Shown here piece by piece: positions 1-33,753 of a stretch of 33,753 nucleotides of DNA; position 1 is the stretch's first letter; each line of letters opens with the position of its first letter. Location: the IMG/VR virus record IMGVR_UViG_2579778538_000002. One strand, 5' to 3'. Source of the stretch: a virus (Duplodnaviria; Heunggongvirae; Uroviricota; Caudoviricetes). The notes beneath the pieces are model-generated. The model did no database searches. It was not told where the DNA came from and saw nothing but the letters and a program-made list of their open reading frames with translations. Position numbers and translations under genes: made by a program.

Positions 1-347
1 CATGTTACCGTGACGGAATTCCACCTTGCAGGAACTGGCACTGACTCTGGTCTGAGTGGAAGTGGATAAAGACGGCGCAATGGCCGCCACAGGTTCTTTC
101 TGCTCATCCGGCGTTATTTCTACAGGTAATAATTCAACGCCAGTGTCAGAAGAGGTCGTTACCGGAAGACGCCGCGAAACACGCCCTTCGTTCTGCCAGA
201 GCCTGAGCCATTTGAAAATAACATTATCATTGACGCCATTTTCACGTGCAATCTGTGCAACACAAGCTCCAGGTTGTGATGCCAGTTCCACCATACGAAG
301 TTTGAATTCATTCGAATAGTTTTTACGAGGTTCTTTTCGCCAGTCCT
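1..347 (-). CDS. IS-element transposase OrfA-like protein (HTH, IS3/IS66-type), 5' part only; continues beyond window start
   Basis: Minus-strand frame open from ATG at 347 to position 1 (not in ORF track because no stop in window). Translation MELQDWRKEPRKNYSNEFKLRMVELASQPGACVAQIARENGVNDNVIFKWLRLWQNEGR has the pattern of insertion-sequence OrfA helix-turn-helix proteins (compare IS911 OrfA ..FSAEFK..). Family assignment from memory, not searched. Confidence 0.5.
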
Positions 348-443
348 GTAATTCCATACTTAGATGTCCGTCTATATCAGATGGGCGTCTAAGTTACCAA
401 TTCTCGTCTGATGGCTACATACGGCGGTCAGTTTACGCTTACC
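348..443 (-). mobile_element. putative IS terminus and leader upstream of the transposase orfA
   Basis: About 95 bp non-coding between the gpI-like stop (449) and orfA start (347); on the transposase strand the segment begins GGTAAGCGTAAACTG, which could be a terminal inverted repeat. Other IS end is outside the window. Confidence 0.3.
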
Positions 444-448
444 CATAA

Positions 449-1027
449 TCAACTGCTCCCGTGGTTATAACTGCCATCATGGATGGCGGTATTGTTATAG
501 CGAATGGCCACAGACTGATACTCCAGGCTGGCCAGATGGCAGCGGGCCGGTGCAAATGCAGCCAGCGTCTGACGCAGCATCGCGGCCTGATCGTTAGTAA
601 TGGGCTGTTTCAGAATAACGCGATAAACTGCCCAGGCGGCTGCATCTCCATGAACAAACAGTCCGTTATAGCTGCGATTGCCGTCGTAACTGAGACGACC
701 TGTGCCTTCAATCAGATCCACTTCACCAAAGCCAAAACGGCGGATAACTTCCCGGATTGACCACGGCGTCCCTTTATACCGGTGCAGTTCGATGGCTGCT
801 TTTATAAGCATGCGGCGAACATCGTCCGATTCCGCCAGCTCCCAGCCATCGCCAGACAGTGAGAACTGCTCGCCCAGCCATGGCAGCGCGGAACTGTCGA
901 CGATATCGACGAGAAAGACCATCAGTACGCTCAGGTCGATGTTATCCAGCCGTCCTGCCAGTCTTCCCAGCGTCCTGAGACTGATATCACCCTCAAGCGG
1001 TGGCGGGAGTTGTAATGGCTCAGTCAT
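449..1027 (-). CDS. baseplate/tail protein, P2 gpI-like (Mu gp48-like)
   Basis: 192 aa ORF immediately after the gpJ-like gene with overlapping stop/start; size and position match P2 gpI / Mu gp48. Confidence 0.65.
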   Translation of the reverse strand: MTEPLQLPPPLEGDISLRTLGRLAGRLDNIDLSVLMVFLVDIVDSSALPWLGEQFSLSGDGWELAESDDVRRMLIKAAIELHRYKGTPWSIREVIRRFGFGEVDLIEGTGRLSYDGNRSYNGLFVHGDAAAWAVYRVILKQPITNDQAAMLRQTLAAFAPARCHLASLEYQSVAIRYNNTAIHDGSYNHGSS

Positions 1028-2123
1028 CAGACACTCCAGTCATGTTAAGAGTGATTGCCGTACAGTTTGCCCATTCGTTTTCTGCCACCACCCGCAGTGC
1101 CGGTGTCACCAGTTCAACCTGGTACACCCCGGAAACGGACAATGCACTGATAATCTGGCTGGGGACAATATCGCGCCCCAGCGTGGCGGCACGTGATGCC
1201 ACCCAGTTCTGTATGGCGCTGTTAGCGGCATCTTTTACAGACCTGGCATCCTGATCACGATAGATCGTAATCCTGGCTTCAATGGTGTAATCCACCTTCA
1301 CTGGTGTTTTAGCCCGCACTGTATCAGTGAGTGGCCTGACTTTCTCATCAGAGCAGAAACTCTCTACCAGCGTGAGAACACCGCCGTCCGGCAGACCGGT
1401 ACTGAGCAGCGGATACAGATCTACGGTCCCGGGAACCGGGGAAAGCACAGCAACATCGACAATGTTGGGATGGGCCTGCATGGCATGAAAGCGGTATGCG
1501 CCACGGCTTCCGGCATTGGTGAATGACTCCGGGGCCAGCCTGATACGCTCCCGGAGCCTGTCATCGTCTTCCTGTTCTGAACCGCCGGAACTGGCCATCA
1601 GATTGCTCACCAGCAGGTTAACGTTATCAATCTCATCGAGTAACTGACTGACCTGCGCAGGTTGCCAGCCGTTACCAGCGGTACCGGGTTCGGTACAGGT
1701 GGCCGTGACATTGACCAGCAGCAATCCGGCCTTCAGTACCACATCTGTATCGGTGGCAAAAATAACGCTGTCGGAAGCGCTGACGCGGGTGCCTGCCGGG
1801 ATCAGCACATCAATGGCCAGTGCCTCATCTACGGAGAACTGGAGCGTGGTGGTGGCAGGCTGCGCGGCAAGACGGTATACACCGACCAGTTCACCGAGGT
1901 AATCAATCATCGGCTCACGGGCAAAGGCGACCAGATTCTGCTTTGCTGCCTCCTGTACCGCAACCCTGACCAGCATTTCGCGATAGGCCCACAGATCAAT
2001 CAGCAGACGTTCTGCCTGTGCCGGGTACAGCGTTTTGCCGGTATCCGCTTCATACTTCGCAATCATTTCTGCCGTGATTTTGTCGGCATCGCGTTCAATA
2101 AAATCGGGTTCTGTCAGCGCCAT
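1020..2123 (-). CDS. baseplate J-like protein (P2 gpJ / Mu gp47-like)
   Basis: 367 aa; position after the gpW-like gene; translationally coupled (overlaps neighbours by 8-10 nt). Confidence 0.75.
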   Translation of the reverse strand: MALTEPDFIERDADKITAEMIAKYEADTGKTLYPAQAERLLIDLWAYREMLVRVAVQEAAKQNLVAFAREPMIDYLGELVGVYRLAAQPATTTLQFSVDEALAIDVLIPAGTRVSASDSVIFATDTDVVLKAGLLLVNVTATCTEPGTAGNGWQPAQVSQLLDEIDNVNLLVSNLMASSGGSEQEDDDRLRERIRLAPESFTNAGSRGAYRFHAMQAHPNIVDVAVLSPVPGTVDLYPLLSTGLPDGGVLTLVESFCSDEKVRPLTDTVRAKTPVKVDYTIEARITIYRDQDARSVKDAANSAIQNWVASRAATLGRDIVPSQIISALSVSGVYQVELVTPALRVVAENEWANCTAITLNMTGVSDD

Positions 2124-2461
2124 AGCAGCTCCTGAGTCCGGGTCTGTCCGTCTGAGCCTTTCCAGCTCACCCGGAGCGTAAGATGTTCGCCGTCGACGGC
2201 GGGTTTAACTGACATAAGCTGGCAGCGGGGCTCCCAGCGCCGGATGGCATCGACGGATTCGCGCACCACATGCGGAATGGCCCGGTCTACAGGCCAGTCG
2301 ATATAAAGATGCAGATTGCTGCCGAACTCCGGGCGATGCGGGTCGCTGCCGCGGGGAGTCCGCAGGATAATTTGAATCGCCTGCCGGATATCATCCAGCC
2401 CCCGGACAATTTCGCCGGGAGCCTGCAGGGCTGGTTGCCAGAATACTGAGGTTGTTTTCAT
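2114..2461 (-). CDS. baseplate protein, GPW/gp25 family (Mu gp46-like)
   Basis: 115 aa, typical size for gpW/gp25, sits between gpV-like and gpJ-like genes. Confidence 0.7.
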   Translation of the reverse strand: MKTTSVFWQPALQAPGEIVRGLDDIRQAIQIILRTPRGSDPHRPEFGSNLHLYIDWPVDRAIPHVVRESVDAIRRWEPRCQLMSVKPAVDGEHLTLRVSWKGSDGQTRTQELLWR

Positions 2462-2515
2462 GGGGGCAGTATTGCCCCCGTGCGGGAACGCTGATATTAA
2501 AGGCGTTTAAAAAGC

Positions 2516-3112
2516 TCAGTGGGAGTGGTGGCTGGAGTTTTCGCCATCAGACAACATACTGCCCGTGGCATGGACATTCCCTTTAATCTCGATATTGCCA
2601 TGGATGGTCGCGGTAACACCTTCACCACCAGAACCCGCCATGCCTCCTTCGTAAATCAGCTTACCCCTGACACGCAGATCTCCGGTAAGTTCGGTTTCCG
2701 GTGCGTCAATCGTGGCTTTCTGTGTTTTCAATACCACATCAGCACCACACTCAATGACAATATGCTCAATGCCGCCCCGGATGATCAGAGTGTGCGTCTT
2801 CCGGTTGTAGCTGTACTCTGCACCATCAGCAAACCGGGTTCCCCGGATATTTTTGTCACTGAACGGTGGTTTATCGACGTCTGAATACACCGCGCCCAGA
2901 ATAACACCATCCTCGCCGTTGGCATCGAGCAGCACCTCAACCTGCTCCCCCACGTCAGGGAGCCAGTAATCTTTGTTATCCTGGGTATTGCGCTGCAGCA
3001 CGTTAAGCCAGTTTGTGCGCAGGTTATCGCATTCAGGCAGACGAACGCGGGCCTGAACCCTGTCGGCATCAACGGCACTGACCGTACCGACCTGACGAGT
3101 GACACCAGTCAT
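2516..3112 (-). CDS. baseplate spike/assembly protein V (P2 gpV / Mu gp45-like)
   Basis: 198 aa; N-terminal OB-fold-like region followed by a Gly-rich C-terminus (GGMAGSGGEG), typical of gpV spikes; follows the gpD-like hub gene. Confidence 0.7.
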   Translation of the reverse strand: MTGVTRQVGTVSAVDADRVQARVRLPECDNLRTNWLNVLQRNTQDNKDYWLPDVGEQVEVLLDANGEDGVILGAVYSDVDKPPFSDKNIRGTRFADGAEYSYNRKTHTLIIRGGIEHIVIECGADVVLKTQKATIDAPETELTGDLRVRGKLIYEGGMAGSGGEGVTATIHGNIEIKGNVHATGSMLSDGENSSHHSH

Positions 3113-4263
3113 TTTTTCTTCTCCTTAATCACCGTCGATGTACTGCCATCCGGGTGATAAACCGTGAGTTTCTGAGTTTTTTGTTTTTTCCCTCTTGTGA
3201 CTGGCCCCCGTGCCACTTCCAGCTCTGTGGTGTAGCCGCTGTTACGGTCAAACGCATGGCGGGCAGTGGTTATGAGCCATGGCCCGGATAACTGCCCAAA
3301 ACTCACCAGTTCAATTTTGTTGCCTGCTGTCAGTTGAGGTGTTCCCGTCAGCGTCAGGGAGCCGTTCTGCTGGTATTCGTTATGTCTGGCCAGTGCTGAA
3401 TCCGCTTTAATCCGGGCACTGTCCGGGTCGCTGACGCGGCTGTTAACTTTAAGTGAGTCAGCGCTGGTAACCTTACCACCTTTGAGCTTTTTGTCGCTTT
3501 CACGGGTACCACCATCAGCTTCGTAGACGATCAGTTTTTTACTGCTGCTTTTCTGGTGTTTTACCTTTGCAGATTTATAGACCCGGTTGATGGTGTCACG
3601 CAGGGAAAAGCGGGCCACATCCTGCGGTTTTAACTGCCTGACCGGCTCCTGACTGCGCAGTGTGGCCAGATGAGAAAAAATCAGCTGGTCACTGACCACT
3701 TTCACTGCATAACCATACTCGCTGGCCAGCCGGCGCAGAAAACCCACGTCGGTTTCAGCATACTGGGTCACCCGGTCGATTCTGATGGACTCAATGCTGC
3801 CCACCAGTTTCAGCCGGTGCTTTCTGGCAATCCGCCCCGCAACAGCTGCCAGCGTGGTGTTCTCAAAACCACGACTGGTTTTAGTCCGCAGGGCACTGTT
3901 AACCGAGGTGGCCACCCCACGGATAGAAACAACGGAAGCGGGCGAACTCACTTCGATCTCGTCTATAGAGAACGTACCGCAGGACAGCAGCTTCTCGCCC
4001 TGATAGCCCATTTTCAGCGTCAGCGTGTCACCCTTGCCCGGATACCATTTATCCAGCCAGCGGCCATCGGTGTCGTCCAGCTCCACCTCAATGGTATCGG
4101 ACTCATTTTTGATGTTATCGCTCCAGGTCACACGGGTGACATAAGGCGCGATATCAGAGGTGATGTTTTTCTGCAGATACCACAGAGTGAACACCGGTGT
4201 CAGCACATCGCTGACGCCGGTTAACGCTGATGTGACTTGCGCAGTGCTGTTTATCTCAGCCAT
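3109..4263 (-). CDS. baseplate hub / late control D-like protein (P2 gpD, Mu gp44-like)
   Basis: 384 aa, size and position as P2 gpD (tape measure - U - X - D order). Confidence 0.7.
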   Translation of the reverse strand: MAEINSTAQVTSALTGVSDVLTPVFTLWYLQKNITSDIAPYVTRVTWSDNIKNESDTIEVELDDTDGRWLDKWYPGKGDTLTLKMGYQGEKLLSCGTFSIDEIEVSSPASVVSIRGVATSVNSALRTKTSRGFENTTLAAVAGRIARKHRLKLVGSIESIRIDRVTQYAETDVGFLRRLASEYGYAVKVVSDQLIFSHLATLRSQEPVRQLKPQDVARFSLRDTINRVYKSAKVKHQKSSSKKLIVYEADGGTRESDKKLKGGKVTSADSLKVNSRVSDPDSARIKADSALARHNEYQQNGSLTLTGTPQLTAGNKIELVSFGQLSGPWLITTARHAFDRNSGYTTELEVARGPVTRGKKQKTQKLTVYHPDGSTSTVIKEKKK

Positions 4264-4466
4264 GGGGCAATATCCTCTTCTGTACGGGCTTCTTCAGCCT
4301 CAATCACCGGGATCAGTAACAACAGCCCGGAGGGCAGCACCGGCGTGATGGCCACGTGCGGATTGGCGGCAATAATCCGGGGATAGCCCAGCGGGTCACC
4401 GTAGTACTGCCATGCCAGCGAATCCCAGCGCTCTCCGTCACGGGTAACATGTTCAAGAAACATCAC
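4251..4466 (-). CDS. tail protein X-like (LysM-like small tail protein)
   Basis: 71 aa, overlaps both neighbours; size and position as P2 gpX-family tail protein. Confidence 0.55.
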   Translation of the reverse strand: MMFLEHVTRDGERWDSLAWQYYGDPLGYPRIIAANPHVAITPVLPSGLLLLIPVIEAEEARTEEDIAPWLR

Positions 4467-5347
4467 ACACTCCTCGTCAGTATTCTGGCGGCCATTGCAC
4501 TTAATCCCGGAGACATGCGGTTGAATGCTGTGCCGACGGCGTTAAGCTGCCCGGAAACGGTATCCAGAGCACCTGCAATATTTCTTTTGTCCACACCACT
4601 CAGCGCAGACTGTGCCTGCTGTACATACGTGGCTGCTTCGCTGGCTGTTCTGGCCAGACTGATGGCATCGGGCATGGATTCAGAGAGTGCGTTAAACGCC
4701 GGAACACTTTTCCCCAGAGCCCCGGAGATATTACCCAGTCCGCTCATCAGCCCCGGCACACGGGTCAGTGCGACAACGGGGTTATCCTTCATTTTCTGTG
4801 TCACCCGAACGGCGCTGATAGTGGTCTGGAGTACAGACTGCGCCTGTTTCGCATAGTTGACGCCGTTGCGGATGAACTGCGCCACCCCTGAAGGTGAAGG
4901 TATGGCACCGGAGACCGCCCCGACACCCGGGAGCTTCGTGCGTATTGCCGGTGGTTGCAGAGGATTTTTCGGGTCACCGGTGTATTCCCGGAGAGACACG
5001 GTGGCACTGACAGCCAGCACGTTGCCGGTACTGTCAGTCTGCTCGCTGGTTGCAGTCACATCGGTGATCACGAACCAGCCGCGATAGTCACCGTTGCCGA
5101 AGACCAGCGCCAGTGCCTGATGGGCTTTCATGGCTGTTCGCAGTCTCGCCAGCTCCACATCGGGTACACAATAATGCTGATGGAAAACCAGAGTTATCTG
5201 GATTTCGTCCAGCCTGTCGCCGACGAACTGCAGACCAGGCTTACCCCCGATGCGGGCATGCTCCGCATAATCGACGCCGAACGTGGCCTCGAAGCCGTCC
5301 CAGTAGGTAATCAGCTCAAACTCAATATCACCCAGTACGGCAAACAT
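4463..5347 (-). CDS. tail formation protein, P2 gpU-like N-terminus (Mu gp43/N region)
   Basis: 294 aa; N-terminus MFAVLGDIEFELITYW...GKPGLQFVGDRLDEIQITL resembles the gpU signature (..LG.F.F......FQFLG...I.L.G); starts 1 nt inside the tape measure stop. Confidence 0.55.
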   Translation of the reverse strand: MFAVLGDIEFELITYWDGFEATFGVDYAEHARIGGKPGLQFVGDRLDEIQITLVFHQHYCVPDVELARLRTAMKAHQALALVFGNGDYRGWFVITDVTATSEQTDSTGNVLAVSATVSLREYTGDPKNPLQPPAIRTKLPGVGAVSGAIPSPSGVAQFIRNGVNYAKQAQSVLQTTISAVRVTQKMKDNPVVALTRVPGLMSGLGNISGALGKSVPAFNALSESMPDAISLARTASEAATYVQQAQSALSGVDKRNIAGALDTVSGQLNAVGTAFNRMSPGLSAMAARILTRSV

Positions 5348-8298
5348 CAGCGGTACTCCTTACGTTGTTTCTGAGCCAGCAGACGCTCCAGCATTTTTTC
5401 CAGCTCATGCAGACTCATATTCAGGGCACCAGTCAGTCCTGCAGGCGCTGTGGTTTCCCTGCCATTGAGGAAAAACTGAGGATTAAAGCTGACCTGGATA
5501 CCACCAGACGTTCCACCGCCGGTTGCAGCTGCACCACGGCCTGAATATCCGGCAGCCAGGATTTCAGGCGAGGGGATACGGGGAACATCCGGTGTCATCT
5601 CATTTGCCAGACGTTGCCCTGGTAAAATCGATGCCCGGGTGGAGAGCGGAATAGCGGGCATGGAAGACAAACTATTGATTACGGCTCCGATCGCATTTTT
5701 AGCAGACGACATAAACCCATTGATATCGGGCAACGGCATACTGAAGCGAACACCTGAAGTGTTATCCCGTATTTCTGGCCCCTGAATGCTCACGGGCATT
5801 CTGGGGAGCAGTTCACTGGCCATTCGCTGCCCGGCCAGAGCTGCAAGCGGAGTGGTCCGCTGCAGGCCAATGGCGGCCCCCTGCGCGATATTGTCACCAA
5901 AGCCCATAAACACGCGGCTCGGCGAATGAATGCCCAGCTTTTCGCTGAACCAGCCACTGATGCTGTCGCCCATTCCGGTTACACTGGATTTGAGCGACTC
6001 CCATTTGTTTTTGATACCGTTAATCAGACCATCGACAAGATGGCCACCGAAGTCGGTAAACTTTGCCGGCAGATCAACACCAAGATATTTCAGCGCAGCT
6101 GCAAAGGCTTTATAGAGCAGACCTGCCGGCGACCAGTTAATCAGCAGCTTACCAGTTCCCGCGATACCGCCGTTAAAGGCTTCCTGAATGTCAGCCCAGC
6201 ATTGTTTAAACCAGCTACTGATGCTGTCACCCATTCCGGTTACACTGGATTTGAGCGACCCCCATTTGTTTTTGATACCGTTAATCAAACCGTCGATAAG
6301 ATGGCCACCGAAGTCGGTGAACTTTGCCGGCAGAGTAACGCCGAAATATTTCAGCGCAGCCGCAAAGGCTTTATAGAGCAGGCCTGCCGGCGACCAGTTA
6401 ATCAGCAGCTTACCAGTTCCCGCGATACCGCCGTTAAAGGCTTCCTGAATGTCAGCCCAGCGCTGTTTAAACCAGCCACTGACTGCCCCCCAGTTGCGGT
6501 AGATAAGGTAAGCTGCTGCCGCGACAGCGGTGATAACGAGACCGATGGGATTCATCATCAGCGCTCGCCCAATCCAGAGAACGGCACGTGCAGCGCTCAT
6601 AAAACCGCGAACGAGGCTGCCCGCCAGAACTTTGCTGAGTTTCAGTCCTCCGCTGGTCAGTCGGCTGAATCCAGTGACAAGCCAGCGTAATTTGCCACCT
6701 TCTCCGAGTGCGGTAGTCAGTCGATGCCAGTTGGTCCGGAGTAAAACAGCAGTTTTCCAGACGTTCACAAAGGGGGAAATAAGGAGATTCAGCCCCAGTT
6801 TGAGACCAACAGTCGCTATCTTAATCGCAAGGAGCGCACTGATGAGCTTAAAAGCCCCACTGACAAATTGCGGGTGAGTCGCCACCCAGTGTTTTGTCCC
6901 CTGAATGAGTGGGAGCAAGTCCTGAGTCAGAGAAATAAAAGATGGAGCTAATTGATCGCCCAGCGTAATTGCCAGATCGCGACTGCTGACCATAAGTGTT
7001 TTAGTGGCTTCAAGGGGAGATTTCAGCCGCTGATCATAAGCACTGGCAAGCAAATCGTTATCCGCAGCCCTGAGAGCACCGGCACGGATCTCTCGATATC
7101 TGTCCATGTTGGCCAGCATCGGGCGGATAAATGCCATGACCTGCATATCCGCGAACATATCGCCCAGACCAAAGTTTTTCGCCAGAGCCTGAAGTGCCTC
7201 ATCTCTTGCCGTATCATTCTTTATTTTCATGGCTGATTTGAAGCCGGCCAGCGCTTCGGGGCTTTTGGCATTGAGGTAACGTTCTATAACACTCAACATC
7301 CCTTCAATCGGAGAGATCCCCGCAGCTTTATAACTCGCAATAGATCCCTGCAAATCAATACCCAGATCAGCAAACTGTTTCTGAGTATCGCGGGCAAAAA
7401 TTTTGGTAAGAAAGTTTTTAAAATTATTGGCTGCTTCGTCGGTGGAACCTGCACCGATTTTTGCTATCTGGAGACTGGCCCCGATTTCAGCAACAGCCTC
7501 TTTTCCACTGGCAATACCCGCCATCATTGGGGCCAGGGACTGCATCCACTTGACCTGATCCGGGATTTCAAATGACCCCTGGTCACCGGCATAAGCCATA
7601 ATATTCTGAACGGCACCAAAATCTCTGGCCGCGCCTTTCAGGGAGTTTTGCCAGACTGCGGCCACTTTTGCCCAGTCCTGAGCAGACGTGCGTGTTGCCG
7701 TTGCCGCGCGGGCAATATCCGGCATCAGAAAACCGATATCTGACACATTATCAATATTGTCGCTGATGAGTGAACCCATCGCCTCCTGCAGCTCATCCTG
7801 ATACTGATTGTATTTAAGCGCCCAGCCTTTTATCTGTCCGGCAAGTGCATCCCGCGTTTTATTGTCATATTTTGCGGTGATCGACATATCAATCATTTTG
7901 TCCTGAAAAGACATGGACTGCTGAACGGCAGGGGAAACCGTATGATAAACAGTCTGTGCCATGCCATACGCTTCAATCCCCTGACCATACAGCGCCATGC
8001 GGTTAGCTTTCAGCGCATCACTGGTAGCGGATGCCGCTGACAGACGGCGCTGCTGGCGCTCAATTTGCTCCATGGTGCGGCTTACCCGCAGCAGCTCGCT
8101 GTTGAGATGCTGCATCCGGGAAGAACCCAGTTGACCATAACGTTCTGTTGCACGGGTTAAAGCGTTCTGACGTTCCTGCAGGCGGCGTGAGGTATCGCTC
8201 AGGGAATCAAGCGCACGGCGGGTACCGCTCATTGCAGAACGGAATGTGCTGCCAATCATCCCGCCGATAACAACGCCGACTGAAAACTGTCCCGACAT
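5347..8298 (-). CDS. tail tape measure protein
   Basis: 983 aa, largest tail gene, directly downstream of the frameshifted chaperone pair; helical N-terminal third, hydrophobic central segment, internal tandem repeat; GGAGG Shine-Dalgarno about 10 nt upstream of ATG. Confidence 0.85.
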   Translation of the reverse strand: MSGQFSVGVVIGGMIGSTFRSAMSGTRRALDSLSDTSRRLQERQNALTRATERYGQLGSSRMQHLNSELLRVSRTMEQIERQQRRLSAASATSDALKANRMALYGQGIEAYGMAQTVYHTVSPAVQQSMSFQDKMIDMSITAKYDNKTRDALAGQIKGWALKYNQYQDELQEAMGSLISDNIDNVSDIGFLMPDIARAATATRTSAQDWAKVAAVWQNSLKGAARDFGAVQNIMAYAGDQGSFEIPDQVKWMQSLAPMMAGIASGKEAVAEIGASLQIAKIGAGSTDEAANNFKNFLTKIFARDTQKQFADLGIDLQGSIASYKAAGISPIEGMLSVIERYLNAKSPEALAGFKSAMKIKNDTARDEALQALAKNFGLGDMFADMQVMAFIRPMLANMDRYREIRAGALRAADNDLLASAYDQRLKSPLEATKTLMVSSRDLAITLGDQLAPSFISLTQDLLPLIQGTKHWVATHPQFVSGAFKLISALLAIKIATVGLKLGLNLLISPFVNVWKTAVLLRTNWHRLTTALGEGGKLRWLVTGFSRLTSGGLKLSKVLAGSLVRGFMSAARAVLWIGRALMMNPIGLVITAVAAAAYLIYRNWGAVSGWFKQRWADIQEAFNGGIAGTGKLLINWSPAGLLYKAFAAALKYFGVTLPAKFTDFGGHLIDGLINGIKNKWGSLKSSVTGMGDSISSWFKQCWADIQEAFNGGIAGTGKLLINWSPAGLLYKAFAAALKYLGVDLPAKFTDFGGHLVDGLINGIKNKWESLKSSVTGMGDSISGWFSEKLGIHSPSRVFMGFGDNIAQGAAIGLQRTTPLAALAGQRMASELLPRMPVSIQGPEIRDNTSGVRFSMPLPDINGFMSSAKNAIGAVINSLSSMPAIPLSTRASILPGQRLANEMTPDVPRIPSPEILAAGYSGRGAAATGGGTSGGIQVSFNPQFFLNGRETTAPAGLTGALNMSLHELEKMLERLLAQKQRKEYR
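5950..6471. repeat. in-frame tandem duplication, 2 x 261 bp, inside the tape measure gene
   Basis: Two adjacent 261-nt units starting near 5950 and 6211, about 94% identical (about 16 mismatches); a third unit begins at 6472 and diverges after about 10 nt. Encodes a duplicated 87-aa block (WFKQRWADIQEAFNGGIAGTGKLLINWSPAGLLYKAFAAALKY...). Confidence 0.9.
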
Positions 8299-8373
8299 AG
8301 TGGTTAACCTCCGGGGAAGGTGAAAAGACGTGAGGGGATAACGCAGAACAGCCGCTACTGGCGGCTGTCTGTA

Positions 8374-8791
8374 CTATGATTTGTCGCCGTACTCGCTTTT
8401 GATTTGCTCTTCAGCCTGCTCCAGCCACATCTCCAGATCGTCAGTATCGAGGGCATCAATCTCCCCCGGCTGAAACCGGAACCATCTCGCCAGCAGCCCC
8501 TGCGCCTGCGTCAGCGCCCTGGTTGCTCTCACCCATCCCCGTGATGAGCTGAAATCGTTTCTGTAACTGCAGGTAATCAGCCAGATCCATATTGTCGAGA
8601 TCCTCCGGGAGAAGACCAGTACTGCGGGCAATCAGCGGTTCGTCCCAGTCTGCCGGGTTTTTGCTGATTTTGCGCACCTGCTTCAGGTCTTTTACCGTCA
8701 GGCGTTTCAGTTCAACCAGCTCAATTCTGGTGCCTGCAGCAGTGGTGAAGGGATAAGACAATTTAAAAGTATCGGATGGGGTCTGTGACAT
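8374..8791 (-). CDS. frameshift-extended tail assembly chaperone (gpE+E' / gpGT analogue), +1/-2 shift near 8461-8469
   Basis: The +1 frame stays open for a further 29 codons past the 8456 stop. The shift must occur in the overlap; the G5 run CCGGGGGAG three codons before the stop is the obvious slippery site. Predicted fusion about 139 aa. Confidence 0.45.
8456..8791 (-). CDS. tail assembly chaperone (P2 gpE / lambda gpG analogue)
   Basis: 111 aa ORF immediately upstream of the tape measure gene, with AGGAG Shine-Dalgarno 8 nt before ATG; a second ORF (8374-8631) overlaps its 3' end in the +1 frame, the conserved chaperone arrangement. Confidence 0.6.
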   Translation of the reverse strand: MSQTPSDTFKLSYPFTTAAGTRIELVELKRLTVKDLKQVRKISKNPADWDEPLIARSTGLLPEDLDNMDLADYLQLQKRFQLITGMGESNQGADAGAGAAGEMVPVSAGGD

Positions 8792-8849
8792 GATTGTGCT
8801 CCTGTGTAAGTTCAGGGCAGTATGTCGGGAGAAGCGCGTGACGGATATT

Positions 8850-8881
8850 AAAGGAGATTAAGAAGAAGGGGCCGGAGCCCC
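8850..8881 (-). terminator. candidate intrinsic terminator/attenuator between the tube module and the chaperone/tape measure genes
   Basis: 6-bp GC stem AGGGGC-CGGA-GCCCCT (about 8866-8881) followed on the minus strand by the pyrimidine-rich run TTCTTCTTAATCTCC. Confidence 0.35.
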
Positions 8882-8888
8882 TGTGATG

Positions 8889-9170
8889 TCAGCAAGTGCG
8901 AAACCCCTTGCAGTTACGCAGGAAAGCGATGAGAAGCGTCTTTCCCTCAGATTTGCCGATGCCGGAGAACCAGTGGTCGGGAGGCTCCCATGCTTCAATC
9001 AAATCCGCCAGTTTGCGGGCCTTTGAACGTGTGCAGTCAATCGGGTCATTGGTTTTACGGGTATTAAAAAGGGTTTCCACCCCCGGAATATCAAGGAGGG
9101 TAAACCACGTACCATTTGACATGCCCAGTGCCGCACATCGTCCTCCTTTATCCGTCAGTTCAACACTCAC
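8889..9170 (-). CDS. hypothetical protein (93 aa), translationally coupled to the tail tube gene
   Basis: ORF begins with GTG 2 nt after the tube stop, with a GGGGG run 9-13 nt upstream; no recognisable motifs; could be spurious. Confidence 0.35.
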   Translation of the reverse strand: MSVELTDKGGRCAALGMSNGTWFTLLDIPGVETLFNTRKTNDPIDCTRSKARKLADLIEAWEPPDHWFSGIGKSEGKTLLIAFLRNCKGFRTC

Positions 9171-9172
9171 CG

Positions 9173-9694
9173 TCAGCCCCCGATATTGATACGGTAGTCA
9201 GTCAGTTGATCAACACCGCCGACCCGGAAGATGTTGGCCAGATAGTCCAGTTGCAGCAGCTCTTCACCATCCAGTACCTGTCTGATATACGTGCAGGTGA
9301 AGCTACTGGAGAACTCGGCGTTCTCGTGCTGTTTGAACGTCCCCAGCGGGTTCTTCTTGAACATAATCGTCAGGAAGGTGACCAGCGGGATTTCGTCAAT
9401 CAGCCCCTGCGAGCTGTAGCGCTGGACGCTGGAACGACACTGCAGTGCCAGCGACCTGTACGGGTTCGCGGCAGACAGCATCGCATCGCGGTAAAAGCTG
9501 TTCCATTTGATTTCGCCTTCCAGTTTGTCAAAACCAGCCGGGAGTTCCACCTTACCCACCATCCCCAGCGCCTTGTGTTCCTGCATAATCATGGAGACAT
9601 CGGGGAGTTTAACTTCCTCAGCCCGTCCCAGCAGGTTAGTACCATCCAGATAGATGTTGGCATTCGTGATGCGGTTTATCTCAATCTTTGACAT
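9173..9694 (-). CDS. tail tube protein (Mu gpM-like)
   Basis: 173 aa gene immediately after the sheath gene (stop/start overlap), the canonical sheath-tube order. Confidence 0.75.
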   Translation of the reverse strand: MSKIEINRITNANIYLDGTNLLGRAEEVKLPDVSMIMQEHKALGMVGKVELPAGFDKLEGEIKWNSFYRDAMLSAANPYRSLALQCRSSVQRYSSQGLIDEIPLVTFLTIMFKKNPLGTFKQHENAEFSSSFTCTYIRQVLDGEELLQLDYLANIFRVGGVDQLTDYRINIGG

Positions 9695-11121
9695 CAGTTG
9701 CCCCCTTTCAGGGTTAACAGGTATTCCGAGGTGATCTCAGTCTCAAACGTCAGTCGCTCCAGCGGCGGTGGTGGCGTATATTTGTAGCTCAGCAACAGGT
9801 GCCCGGCGGCCAGCTCCGTCTCCGGATTGCGGGCCGGATCAAACCAGCAACGGAAGCCCAGTACCGCACCATCACCAGTCATTTTGCGACCGTAGGCGTT
9901 GACCGACTCCGTCAGTGCATCAATCAGCGCCTGAGTAATCGGCATGTCGATGTACTGCTGGCTGAAATAACGAATGGACTCGTTGATCACATCACCGGTG
10001 CGGCGAACGTTCTCAAAGTTACGCATATGGGTGACCGTTGGCCATGCTGCCGTCCGGTTACCCCACAGACGAAGGCCGCTGCCGTAACTGCTGAATACCG
10101 TGGTGATCCCCTGTTCGTTAAGCAGGTTCACCTCACTCTGCGGGTCATCAATCATCGCGGACAGCTGGCGCTCCACGCCGGTGATCCCCAGAATCTCCTG
10201 ATTGGAGGATGACCACCAGTAGCCCTTGTCCAGATCGACTCTGGCACGCAGACCTGCTGCACGCTGGCTGAGCGGCTCCAGACGCTCTGTGTTTGTCACC
10301 GGGTCATATACCTTCACATGCGGATAGCACAGACGGACGCGGTCGGAGCTGGTATTGAAGTTGATGGTGCCTTCCGGGCCACGACCTGCCAGAGCCTGTG
10401 CAAAGGTGGTACCGACAGGCGCATCAATGTAGGTTACCGCGCCCAGCTTCTCTGCCATGGCGATAAGCTCAACTGCGACACTCTTCTGGGTGCAGAACAC
10501 CGGCGCAATCAGAATTTTGGCGAAATAGCCGTACAGGTTGAAGCTGTCGTTAAGCAGCTTCATGCCGGTTCGGTTTCCGGCGCTGTTCACCCCGCCGATG
10601 ATGTCCGCCGCAGTCACCTTCGACGGGTCCGCGTACTCATAGCTCACCTTCACGCTGCCACCGGCCTCAATAGCCTTGCCCAGGTTCGTGAGCACACCCG
10701 CCTGCGCATCAACACGGTAGTCCGTGTTCGCCGTGTGGGTGGTGCTGCCTTCACTGTTTTTCACCACCACATTAGCGACAACCGGATGCGCCAGTCTGGC
10801 CTGCCCTGTCGATTTGTCAAAGGTAACCACCTCATCCTCGATCGCCGTTTTATGTTTCGCCGGGTCGAGGACGTTAATGACCAGAACGGTGCCTGCACCA
10901 TGGTCATAAATCGCATCCAGCGCCTGCGGAATGGTAAAGCCGGTGAACTGGCTGCCAAATGCCGCTGCGTCTTTCTCAGACAGGCACTGTACCAGCGTAT
11001 TGACATCCCCCATCGGGGCGGTACCAATCAGGCCAATAACGGCAGATTTCACCGTTTTAACCGGGCGGGCACCGTTTTCCACCTCAATGGTTTCGGGACC
11101 ATGCAGATAGTTAGCTGCCAT
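9694..11121 (-). CDS. contractile tail sheath protein (Mu gpL-like)
   Basis: 475 aa, size and position of Mu L / P2 FI sheath proteins. Confidence 0.85.
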   Translation of the reverse strand: MAANYLHGPETIEVENGARPVKTVKSAVIGLIGTAPMGDVNTLVQCLSEKDAAAFGSQFTGFTIPQALDAIYDHGAGTVLVINVLDPAKHKTAIEDEVVTFDKSTGQARLAHPVVANVVVKNSEGSTTHTANTDYRVDAQAGVLTNLGKAIEAGGSVKVSYEYADPSKVTAADIIGGVNSAGNRTGMKLLNDSFNLYGYFAKILIAPVFCTQKSVAVELIAMAEKLGAVTYIDAPVGTTFAQALAGRGPEGTINFNTSSDRVRLCYPHVKVYDPVTNTERLEPLSQRAAGLRARVDLDKGYWWSSSNQEILGITGVERQLSAMIDDPQSEVNLLNEQGITTVFSSYGSGLRLWGNRTAAWPTVTHMRNFENVRRTGDVINESIRYFSQQYIDMPITQALIDALTESVNAYGRKMTGDGAVLGFRCWFDPARNPETELAAGHLLLSYKYTPPPPLERLTFETEITSEYLLTLKGGN

Positions 11122-21826: not shown

Positions 21827-22177
21827 TTAAAGCCCCATCGCAACAGCCAGGCAGACCGCTGCAACAATCAGTGCACGGCGGATTAACGCAGCAGAAAACA
21901 CCAGGTGAAGGCCGGTCTGTACCGGGAAACGCCCTTCAGCCATCAGCCTGTCGTCATGTTTCAGGTACTGACCGGGACGGGCTTTGGGGAAGAGCGAACG
22001 GTCAAGCCAGTAACCCAGCACTGCTGCCAGCGTGATGAGTGCCAGCTTGTAGATCACAACAGGCAGCTGCTGTGGTGAGACCAGAGCGATGGTGCCCAGC
22101 AACAGCACTGAGGTCAGCAGCCAGCCGCTGAGGCGAGGTTTTTTAACAGGGGGAATGAATTTTTTCAGGTTTTTCAT
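21827..22177 (-). CDS. putative holin / small multi-TMD membrane protein
   Basis: Start moved to ATG at 22177 (AAGGAG 7 nt upstream); 116 aa with about three hydrophobic segments; first gene of lysis cassette directly upstream of the endolysin. Confidence 0.5.
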   Translation of the reverse strand: MKNLKKFIPPVKKPRLSGWLLTSVLLLGTIALVSPQQLPVVIYKLALITLAAVLGYWLDRSLFPKARPGQYLKHDDRLMAEGRFPVQTGLHLVFSAALIRRALIVAAVCLAVAMGL

Positions 22178-22196
22178 GTGTGTCTCCTTATCTGGT

Positions 22197-22235
22197 GGAG
22201 ACAGCATCACAAATACAGGGCGCGAAGGATTTTAA
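22197..22235 (-). promoter_or_regulatory. candidate activator-dependent late promoter upstream of the lysis cassette (same tripartite motif as upstream of gene I)
   Basis: Minus strand reads TTAAAATC-N9-CTGTATTT-N6-CTGTCTCC, ending about 20 nt before the holin ATG; in the divergent intergenic region 22178-22307. Confidence 0.4.
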
Positions 22236-22307
22236 AGCGCGTTAAGAGAGCCGGGGATACGGGATGTGCAGGATAAACGATGAATTATTCACAGAGGAGA
22301 ATACGAT

Positions 22308-23036
22308 ATGACGCAGACACTGAATCCGGTCATCACTGTCACCGTGTCCGGTCCTGTGGGCAGCGGTAAAAGTTACGTACTGGCGCGAATAGAGGAAGTG
22401 GTGAAACAGGAATTCGGAAACAGCGTCATTGTCGACGCCGCAGACGTGGACGGTGAGCGCCGTATGAGTGGGGATGATCTGAGCACATGGCAGAAACCAC
22501 GGGCTGGCACAGTGATCAGGCTGGAGGAATACACGGGACAGGGCCTGTTGTCATACGGCGAGGAGCGTATCTGTCGGACGAATGAGCTGCTGGATGTTAT
22601 ATGCCCCACGGGCCGGCAACCCTGGATACTGCCCGATGCACTGCATGCCACCATTGCGGCACTGATGACAGTTTACGATCAGGAGCTGCTCATGAAGGAG
22701 TTACGTAAACTCACTGGTCAGTCAACAGAATGTTGTTCGTCCCCGAAGTACGGCAAACAGGAACACATCCCGATTAACCAGCCTCCCCGGTTCTTCGACG
22801 AATACCTTCTGACACCGGAAAATAAAGCTGAGCATGAAGAGATCAAAGCGGCGTTGTTCCGGGAAATCAGGAAGATTGCTGAAATGCAACTGGAGGGCGG
22901 GCTGGACAGAGTGATGGCGAGAGGAGAATGGGCATCGCTGTTTGAAAGAGTTTCCCCGGAATTACTTCCCCTCGCACTGGCTATCGGGATTATGCAGACA
23001 GCGGATAAACCTCACTTACGTTCATTAAACACGTAA
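22308..23036 (+). CDS. P-loop NTPase, kinase-like (Walker A GPVGSGKS at residues 15-22), unknown function
   Basis: 242 aa with strong Shine-Dalgarno (GAGGAG) before ATG; N-terminal strand-P-loop-helix arrangement VITVTVSGPVGSGKSYVLARIEE and candidate Walker B SVIVDAAD; transcribed divergently from the late operon. Confidence 0.6.
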   Translation: MTQTLNPVITVTVSGPVGSGKSYVLARIEEVVKQEFGNSVIVDAADVDGERRMSGDDLSTWQKPRAGTVIRLEEYTGQGLLSYGEERICRTNELLDVICPTGRQPWILPDALHATIAALMTVYDQELLMKELRKLTGQSTECCSSPKYGKQEHIPINQPPRFFDEYLLTPENKAEHEEIKAALFREIRKIAEMQLEGGLDRVMARGEWASLFERVSPELLPLALAIGIMQTADKPHLRSLNT

Positions 23037-23416
23037 CGCATAATCCGGGATACGCATTCAGCGATGACTGCATTTTCACCGGTTTTTACTGCATCCAGAA
23101 GTGACTCTTTAAATGGTACGGGCCGGGGCTGCAGAAAGGTCGGCATGGCATTGAGCAGACAGAGCGTTTTTTCCGTGAGGACGACATCAGCCGCTCCCAC
23201 AGCCAGCAACTGAGAGTAACGAATATAGCTGTTATCCCGAAGCCATATCAGCGTATCAATAAAACACCGGCACTTTTTCTGGTCGTGATCAACCTGGTCC
23301 GGGATATCGAAAAAACCAGAATAAATCAAAACCTGAGGTGCCGGATGCGTGTTCAGTAATCGGCAGAATATTTTGCCGGTGAGTACATAAAAATCATCAT
23401 TTAAGGAGTGCATCAT
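23012..23416 (-). CDS. hypothetical protein (134 aa)
   Basis: ORF convergent with the P-loop gene (25-bp 3' overlap) and head-to-head with the 71-aa gene; AT-richer than the phage core; coding status uncertain. Confidence 0.4.
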   Translation of the reverse strand: MMHSLNDDFYVLTGKIFCRLLNTHPAPQVLIYSGFFDIPDQVDHDQKKCRCFIDTLIWLRDNSYIRYSQLLAVGAADVVLTEKTLCLLNAMPTFLQPRPVPFKESLLDAVKTGENAVIAECVSRIMRYVFNERK

Positions 23417-23630
23417 GAATCCCCGATTAACGTTAACAGAACATCAGCGCCGTGCTGAAGCAGTGAACAATGTTCTGGAAGATATTATCCGGTTATACCG
23501 CGGAGAACTGAGTGTCTGTCGTGCCGCTTTTCATTTTCAGGGAATACAAAAGCAGTTTGATACTTCTGTTTTTGCAGAAGGTATTACTTATGCCCTGGAC
23601 CGGATAAGGTCAGAAAATCGCCCCGGATAA
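23415..23630 (+). CDS. hypothetical protein (71 aa)
   Basis: ATG preceded by AAGGAG with 6-nt spacing; no recognisable motifs. Confidence 0.45.
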   Translation: MNPRLTLTEHQRRAEAVNNVLEDIIRLYRGELSVCRAAFHFQGIQKQFDTSVFAEGITYALDRIRSENRPG

Positions 23631-23820
23631 TCCCTAAACCACATTAACAGAAATCCCGCCATCCCTGCCGCATCATGAAAGAACGACCAGCCCGGCACCC
23701 GAAAGCCGGGCTGGTCATCGCCCCACAGGAATGCGCTGTGAGCCGACCAAGGTTCAGTCAGTCTCGCGAGACCTGACCAGACTGCCATATTTTTTAATAA
23801 TTGTAAAAGGCTTGCAGATT

Positions 23821-24585
23821 ATGAAAATGCAGACATTACCCATCGTGCCGTGGATTGGTGGCAAACGCCGCCTTGCAAAACACATTCTGCCGCTGTTTCC
23901 GGCGCATGAATGTTATGTGGAGCCGTTTTGTGGGGCAGCAGCGCTCTATTTTCTTAAGACACCCGGCAAGATCGAAGTCATCAATGATATCAACGGTGAA
24001 CTGGTGAATCTGTACCGGGTGGTAAAGCATCACCTGGAAGAATTTGTCCGCCAGTTCAAATGGGCGCTGGTCAGCCGTCAGATCTACAAATGGCTGCAGA
24101 TCACCCCGGAAGAAACACTGACGGATATCCAGCGTGCGGCACGGTTCTACTACCTTCAGAAGCAGGCGTTTGGCGGCAAGGTGGCAGAGCACAGCTTCGG
24201 TACCTCCACCACATCCCCGCCACGCTTCAACCTGCTACGTATTGAAGAAGAACTGTCAGCGGCACACCTGCGGCTTTCCAGAACAGTCATAGAACACATG
24301 GACTGGCAACAGTGCATTGAGCGTTATGATCGTCCGCACACGCTGTTCTACTGCGACCCACCGTACCTGGGTACGGAAGGCTATGGTGTGGATTTTCCTG
24401 AAGGGAACTACTCGCGGCTGGCAGAGCTGGCCCGGTGCATCAGAGGAAAAATGATAATTTCGGTGAACGACATCCCGCAGATGCGCGAGGTGTTCACTGG
24501 ACTGAACATACAGACAGTGAATATCAACTACAGTCTGGCGGGTAAACCCACGCCGCGCCGTGAACTGCTAATCTGCAACTTCTGA
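23821..24585 (+). CDS. DNA N6-adenine methyltransferase, Dam-like (D12 class), orphan
   Basis: N-terminal AdoMet-binding region WIGGKRR...YVEPFCGAAALYF and catalytic motif DPPY (FYCDPPYLGTEGYG) as in E. coli Dam; start set at internal ATG 23821 (MKMQTLPIV...). No restriction endonuclease candidate adjacent. Confidence 0.85.
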   Translation: MKMQTLPIVPWIGGKRRLAKHILPLFPAHECYVEPFCGAAALYFLKTPGKIEVINDINGELVNLYRVVKHHLEEFVRQFKWALVSRQIYKWLQITPEETLTDIQRAARFYYLQKQAFGGKVAEHSFGTSTTSPPRFNLLRIEEELSAAHLRLSRTVIEHMDWQQCIERYDRPHTLFYCDPPYLGTEGYGVDFPEGNYSRLAELARCIRGKMIISVNDIPQMREVFTGLNIQTVNINYSLAGKPTPRRELLICNF

Positions 24586-33392: not shown

Positions 33393-33753
33393 GGGGCCGG
33401 AACTCCTGGTGGAACTGGCACAGCATACCTCTGAGACCGTTCGCGAGATTATTGATATTGAGCCCGAAGTTGCCGACCAGATTGGTCAGGCCGTCGCGAA
33501 CCGAATGATGCAGGTCTGGGGCGGGCAAAACGTTTATTTCCCGATGGGCATGGTATGGAAGGTCAGTCAGCGCGACCGGGAAATCTTCAGGGAGTTTAAC
33601 GGACGCAACCACCACGAACTGGCCCGCAAATTTGGTGTTTCGCTTCAGTGGGTCTACAGCGTGGTTAAGCGGGTAAGAAAAGAAGAACTGGATCGGATGC
33701 AGGGCAAGCTATTTGCTGATGAACCCGATGCAGATACGGAGAAAAAAGAGTAA
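33364..33753 (+). CDS. mor: middle operon regulator Mor (Mor/C-family transcription activator)
   Basis: 129 aa (same length as Mu Mor); C-terminal HTH region FNGRNHHELARKFGVSLQWVYSVVKRVR parallels Mu Mor FNGRN..EL....GV....VY...RR.R; overlaps gemA-like gene by 29 nt. Confidence 0.85.
   Translation: MSDLNQFRSKGPELLVELAQHTSETVREIIDIEPEVADQIGQAVANRMMQVWGGQNVYFPMGMVWKVSQRDREIFREFNGRNHHELARKFGVSLQWVYSVVKRVRKEELDRMQGKLFADEPDADTEKKE

Follow-up and report, generated by a model that had tools for sequence, protein, structure and literature searches.

Insertion sequences of the IS66 family carry a small HTH gene, tnpA, first, followed by tnpB (IS66 Orf2) and the DDE transposase gene tnpC, and they generate an 8-bp target-site duplication. 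The terminal inverted repeats of this family reportedly start with 5'-GTAAGCG. Among transposable phages, BcepMu and the genus Bcepmuvirus resemble the prophage of this study in the transposase, the Mu-type portal, F, Gam, Mor and the divergent early and late blocks. For the prophage Phi2 of Escherichia coli EC958, a 2,067-bp invertible tail-fibre segment with crossover sites has been described, and both orientations were present in PacBio reads (Forde et al. 2014, PMC4134206). The module is similar to the Mu G segment/Gin and the P1 C segment/Cin systems: a constant fibre N-terminus is combined with alternative C-terminal 'Collar' cassettes, each with its cognate assembly gene, and a 190-aa serine invertase flips them (PMC4134206).

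The stretch of DNA analysed here, in the following the window, comprises 33,753 nucleotides (IMG/VR record IMGVR_UViG_2579778538_000002). By sequence comparison, positions 443-33753 are the BcepMu-like transposable prophage Phi2 of E. coli ST131 and positions 1-442 (minus strand) belong to ISEc23, a common E. coli element of the IS66 family, and represent its end on the tnpA side. One copy of ISEc23 has most probably transposed into the late operon of Phi2 at the octamer GATTATGG, leaving the host-range module intact and displaced by 2.5 kb; the probability of this reading is about 0.93. Element and prophage are both already known, and the insertion is an ordinary one. In comparison to the switches of Mu and P1, the whole invertible module lies outside the window and is relevant only as the part that the IS separates from the baseplate genes. 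The name ISEc23 follows the RefSeq/PGAP annotation on identical copies. The features around the junction are:

1..442, minus strand: partial ISEc23 (IS66 family), the tnpA-proximal 442 nt of the 2,532-bp element, cut at position 1 by an assembly gap
1..357, minus strand: tnpA, IS66 accessory HTH protein, codons 1-119 of 141 (translation, Pfam, NCBIfam, RefSeq identity)
372..446, minus strand: chimeric 24-codon ORF, MGKRKLTAVCSHQTRIGNLDAHLI* (translation)
419..442, minus strand: terminal inverted repeat of the tnpA end, GTAAGCGTAAACTGACCGCCGTAT (alignment of both IS ends)
443..450, minus strand: one copy of the 8-bp target-site duplication, GATTATGG on the gene strand; second copy at L017 12493-12500
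449..1027, minus strand: gpI-like baseplate/tail protein, 192 aa, intact (Pfam Tail_P2_I)
1020..3112, minus strand: baseplate genes J (1020-2123), W/gp25 (2114-2461) and V (2516-3112) (Pfam Baseplate_J, GPW_gp25, Phage_base_V)

The Phi2 prophage and its gpI/fibre junction

Window positions 439-33753 were 99.99 % identical over 33.3 kb to the prophage of EC958, and likewise to that of E. coli AREA_494. The EC958 prophage between aroA and ycaL is, by its coordinates, the 'Phi2' of Forde et al. 2014; chromosomal site and fibre module are common to both, whereas in EC958 gpI and the fibre gene are not separated by an IS and three additional bases are present at 23545. Within 439-33753, position 441, which is the junction itself, and this 3-bp indel were the only differences. 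The indel is an extra TAC of EC958 in a small hypothetical gene (216 versus 219 nt); window and AREA_494 share the allele of the majority (447 of 488 genomes). The AREA_494 prophage was otherwise one SNP apart from the window.

The set of Pfam families comprised an rve transposase with its AAA_22 partner, Phage_Mu_Gam, Mor, Portal_Mu and Phage_Mu_F, combined with a P2-like tail. The transposase shared 67.8 % identity with gp09 of BcepMu, and Escherichia phage PhiKM, whose GenBank record has an identical transposase, is classed as Bcepmuvirus. Relatives resided at varied chromosomal sites: aroA, pepN, nitrate-reductase-type molybdopterin genes and dadX/fadR-type genes. In contrast to BcepMu, the host is E. 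coli and the module ends in a Gin/Cin-type invertible segment, a feature read in the E. coli prophage alone. The window ends on the right, at 33753, exactly with the stop codon of the Mor gene, which is the last one of the prophage. An internal direct duplication of about 290 bp (5948-6240 and 6209-6500, 92 % identity) was located in the gene for the tape-measure protein (5347-8298, minus strand). In relatives the tape-measure proteins had 961, 983 and 1,070 aa, a hint that they differ in their count of repeat units.

In the late operon the genes J, W/gp25 and V are upstream of gpI. The assignment of gpI was based on PF09684 (87.2 bits), TIGR01634 (40.4 bits, cutoff 30.05) and the position after Baseplate_J, gp25/W and V; length and position equal those of the gpI gene of RefSeq (WP_000138756.1) on window-identical DNA. 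Its stop codon TGA occupies 451..449 (minus strand). In IS-free relatives the fibre ATG follows 2 nt past the gpI stop (TGATTATGG), i.e., 3 nt after the last gpI base. The gene strand of EC958 reads ...AGTTGATTATGGGAAACCTG... across the junction and contains the uninterrupted target sequence TGATTATGGGAAACC. The offset of the ATG to gpI was the same in EC958 and in all ten relatives obtained from a look-up with the gpI protein, and a 130-bp query spanning the gpI/fibre junction was covered to at least 80 % in 588 of the 589 matching complete genomes.

The fibre ORF of EC958 (L002 7677-9008) is intact and codes for 443 aa with three Phage_fiber_2 repeats and a Collar domain. It is followed by a 204-aa assembly protein, two inverted alternative C-terminal cassettes, the 190-aa serine invertase and aroA. 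RefSeq/PGAP calls the fibre gene of EC958 Phi2 pseudogene fragments ('missing N-terminus and C-terminus'), though the ORF is intact; the call seems to be due to the invertible alternative cassettes. The 190-aa protein with Resolvase and HTH_7 domains and the inverted Collar-domain cassettes were found in EC958 as well as in the scaffold that contains the window (L017, see below), in both cases as a module outside the window.

The ISEc23 end in the window

The 442 nt at window positions 1-442 were 100 % identical to the annotated ISEc23 copy of E. coli AREA_494. This full copy (L001 6911-9442) has 2,532 bp, the ends GTAAGCG... and ...CGCTTAC, and the 8-bp repeat GATATTTT on either side. In an alignment of the two ISEc23 ends the first 8 nt were identical and about 19 of 24 positions matched; both ends open with GTAAGCGT. 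Every ISEc23 copy examined had an identical tnpA-side end, and target-site duplications around the full copies placed the terminus in the window at GTAAGCG, 442..436 (minus strand). Identity over 442 nt, the GTAAGCG terminus, tnpA in first position, the 8-bp duplication and sister copies of 2,532 bp all agree with ISEc23; the element itself presented no differences, and this strain is special only in the site of insertion.

The tnpA ORF starts with an ATG at 357..355 (minus strand), 91 nt past the gpI stop, and stays open through position 1. Its translation matched Pfam HTH_Tnp_1 with 46.9 bits and the NCBIfam model NF047595 for IS66-like TnpA with 76.1 bits (cutoff 74), and all 119 residues equal the first 119 of the 141-aa protein WP_000422741.1, the RefSeq 'IS66-like element accessory protein TnpA'. 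On the basis of these matches and the RefSeq identity, the ORF codes for the accessory TnpA and not for the DDE transposase. The tnpC gene for the DDE transposase lies outside the window. Sister copies of ISEc23 with identical ends carry tnpB (PF05717) and tnpC (PF03050), and tnpC stops 30 nt before the end of the element.

The original prediction had described this end as a gpI-like gene with its stop at 449, followed by a minus-strand ORF of the IS transposase type with an HTH motif that runs off the window edge. The gpI assignment was confirmed by TGA at 451..449 and the Tail_P2_I match. ORF and HTH motif were recovered as well, with a start at 357..355 instead of the proposed 347, and the protein does belong to an IS66 element, as accessory TnpA rather than as DDE TnpC. 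The sequence next to the gpI stop that had been suspected to be an IS terminus, GGTAAGCG, contains the GTAAGCG end at 442..436. A tail-fibre gene had been noted as missing from the window, in agreement with a tblastn search of the window with the EC958 fibre, fibre-assembly and invertase proteins that retrieved no homologue (best E = 0.6).

At the near junction the octamer GATTATGG at 443..450 includes the last two nucleotides of the gpI stop and the original fibre ATG (446..444), so the IS starts in the window directly after ATGG of the fibre gene. The exact string of this junction was absent from IMG/VR, the GTDB species representatives and the JGI metagenomes, and also from 5,426 complete E. 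coli genomes. The chimeric ORF at 372-446 combines the original ATG of the fibre gene and its native ribosome binding site (GGGAG, 460..456) with a reading frame into the IS inverted repeat, upstream of tnpA; this 24-codon ORF is probably without function.

Sequence beyond the window and rival structures

E. coli BIDMC 79 has on record a partial protein that equals the truncated 119-aa TnpA exactly. Scaffold KK736444.1 of this strain (GCA_000692675.1, L017) showed no mismatch to the window over the stretch compared, positions 1-10357. Its near junction reads ...GATTATGG directly followed by GTAAGCG and then 1,902 Ns, and the left edge of the window is one base away from this scaffold gap inside the IS. 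The truncation of tnpA at position 1 is thus an assembly artefact: an N gap of the draft scaffold inside a repeated element limits the IS portion in the window to 442 nt, and the fibre genes are lacking from the window because its sequence stops at the N run. Nine further public contigs from the look-up with the 119-aa fragment stop at this position of ISEc23 as well, 357-358 nt past the start of tnpA. The position seems to be a systematic breakpoint of assemblies, possibly as the remainder of ISEc23 is common to other repeats.

The interior of this ISEc23 copy consists of the 1,902 Ns. Past the gap, the last 232 nt of ISEc23 were present, including the end of tnpC, of which the last 66 codons are visible (PF13817, DDE_Tnp_IS66_C). 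The far junction had been predicted from the 8-bp rule before its discovery as ...CGCTTAC-GATTATGG-GAAACC and was found exactly so in L017, ...GACGCTTAC-GATTATGG-GAAACCTGAATG...; the exact predicted string was absent from IMG/VR, the GTDB representatives and the JGI metagenomes. The fibre ORF past the IS (L017 12497-13828, 443 aa) is identical to that of EC958, and the 7,866 bp after the IS were 100 % identical to the IS-free EC958 sequence, through aroA, serC and ycaP. The gene order behind the IS is fibre gene, fibre-assembly gene, inverted alternative cassette, DNA invertase and aroA. The N gap in L017 has an estimated size, and the join across it rests on the scaffolding by the assembler, the matching 8-bp repeats and the collinearity with EC958.

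In the proposed course of events, ISEc23 would have targeted the 8 bp GATTATGG that span the gpI stop and the fibre start codon, and the insertion would have duplicated them. Because of this duplication both the gpI stop and the fibre ATG are kept: gpI would retain its stop, and the fibre gene its ATG together with the whole reading frame beyond the IS. With both genes kept, the host-range module is intact and 2.5 kb further away from gpI. A single 2.5-kb IS has shifted the module, with neither a deletion nor an interruption of the reading frame. The original prediction had left the choice between displacement by an IS and deletion, of which the 8-bp repeat and the intact module in L017 support the former and dismiss the latter. 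Its further suggestion of a defective prophage or a rearranged host-range region did not hold, as intact fibre genes follow undisrupted directly beyond a short IS. The proposed inspection of the sequence beyond the window was productive: the IS end, the target-site duplication GATTATGG and the fibre gene were all found in KK736444.1.

Three other structures were considered. HTH proteins are common in phages and the window shows a fragment only, so the ORF at 1-357 could be taken for a phage regulator gene, with no IS present. We give this reading no credence, since the ORF sequence is 100 % identical to part of a mobile 2,532-bp unit with inverted-repeat ends, which is flanked by 8-bp duplications at five sites in the prophage family, whose tnpA end adjoins eight further unrelated flanks on chromosomes and plasmids, while IS-free prophages are entirely devoid of the ORF sequence. 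A deletion or rearrangement of the fibre module by the IS, either as adjacent deletion or by recombination between two ISEc23 copies, would leave a truly fibreless prophage. The window alone, with a single IS end and no fibre gene, would fit such an event, and ISEc23 is a multicopy element: query 380-500, about half of which is IS end, had matches in 2,609 of 5,426 genomes, with a median of 2 places per genome. In L017, however, the matching 8-bp repeat stands behind the other IS end, and then comes the whole module in collinear order, 100 % identical to EC958 up to aroA. Neither a deletion nor an IS-IS recombinant would carry matching duplications, and a fibreless prophage is therefore very improbable. 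Still more remote is a derivation from the insertion of AREA_494, located 38 bp deeper in the fibre gene, by an IS-adjacent deletion of 38 bp of the fibre start. The two insertions share IS and orientation, they are only 38 bp apart, and a single SNP distinguishes the prophages elsewhere; the shared 3-bp variant is, however, the common allele in 447 of 488 genomes, and on the far side L017 reads GATTATGG and retains the fibre gene's 5' end in full, with the 38 bp still in place. This far-junction sequence cannot be reconciled with an origin from the GATATTTT insertion, and the derivation was rejected.

Prophages with IS insertions are commonplace, as are assemblies with gaps at IS copies. A prophage that appears fibreless in a draft assembly may be complete, which bears mainly on correct annotation.

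Fibre expression and insertions at the fibre start

The consequences of the insertion for the fibre genes were deduced from the arrangement of signals at the two junctions. The regenerated fibre ATG is now preceded by the IS end ...CCGTTGACGCTTACGATT, which has no evident Shine-Dalgarno motif. The native ribosome binding site (GGGAG, 460..456) remains on the gpI side of the IS, and so does the TGAttATG by which fibre gene and gpI were coupled. Transcripts of the late phage genes would extend into tnpA, tnpB and tnpC. Since the IS genes are co-oriented with the late operon, fibre transcripts would have to arise by read-through of 2.5 kb of IS genes. Loss of the native ribosome binding site and of the coupling, together with the need for read-through, would lower fibre expression and hence yield fewer adsorbing virions. 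A reduced expression of the fibre and fibre-assembly genes by polarity is thus rather likely on sequence grounds. The invertase gene has its own orientation and is unaffected by the IS. Scans for promoters and terminators at the junction and in a full-length IS copy returned no more hits than expected from shuffling and were uninformative on polarity.

A functionally neutral insertion, in which read-through and adequate initiation provide enough fibre for a fully infectious prophage, appears possible yet rather unlikely. The direction of the IS genes, which is that of the late operon, the tnpC stop only 30 nt before the IS end and the intact state of fibre ORF, ATG and downstream genes would all permit it, and the scan detected no convincing intrinsic terminator in the IS. 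Opposed to neutrality are the position of GGGAG and the TGAttATG coupling on the wrong side of the IS and the length of the intervening RNA, as polar effects are common downstream of 2.5 kb of poorly translated IS RNA. For ST131, polarity would mean that one strain-specific ISEc23 insertion may silence the Phi2 fibre; silencing would matter only if Phi2 particles are infectious or otherwise functional.

The Phi2-type prophage is a frequent IS target in the ST131-type lineage. Four other ISEc23 insertions were present in the prophage family, all with 8-bp duplications (GATATTTT, CTGATGTG, ACGAGTGT and GGATAAAC). They are located in the fibre gene of AREA_494, 38 bp further inward than in the window (repeats at L001 6903-6910 and 9443-9450), in gpV (L006 5754-8285), upstream of the holin gene at the head of the late operon (L027 about 21937-24468) and in an early-region gene (L016 2597-5128). 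A second IS66-family element, ISCro1, occupied the same octamer GATTATGG in NZ_OZ040274.1 (L015 6065-6072 and about 8771-8778). There, too, gpI is intact and the fibre ORF, here of 543 aa, is intact; ISCro1 differs in its size of 2,699 bp, an identity to ISEc23 of about 64-76 % in patches, the opposite orientation and the location of the prophage copy near pepN.

Three independent IS66-family insertions of two IS species thus lie within 46 bp, two of them at one 8-bp target, set against a census elsewhere in the prophage that was partial and coarser. The 48 bp at the fibre start stand out in composition: they have 67 % A+T in comparison to 45 % in the prophage and rank among the top 1.3 % of all 50-bp windows and the top 0.24 % of those in the late region. 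The 13 distinct ISEc23 flanks had a mean of 65 % A+T, with A or T in position 5 in all 13. As patch and flanks are both AT-rich, the clustering at the fibre start is accounted for, and a preference for AT-rich targets is probably sufficient as explanation. It is doubtful that the first ~50 bp of the fibre gene form a true landing pad for IS66-family elements beyond their AT-richness, with the insertions retained as a step of domestication; if true, an uncoupling of the fibre/host-range module from the late operon would benefit the lysogen. The literature on target preferences of ISEc23 and IS66 yielded incidental mentions only. In two genomes, the early region of the prophage carried an IS1.
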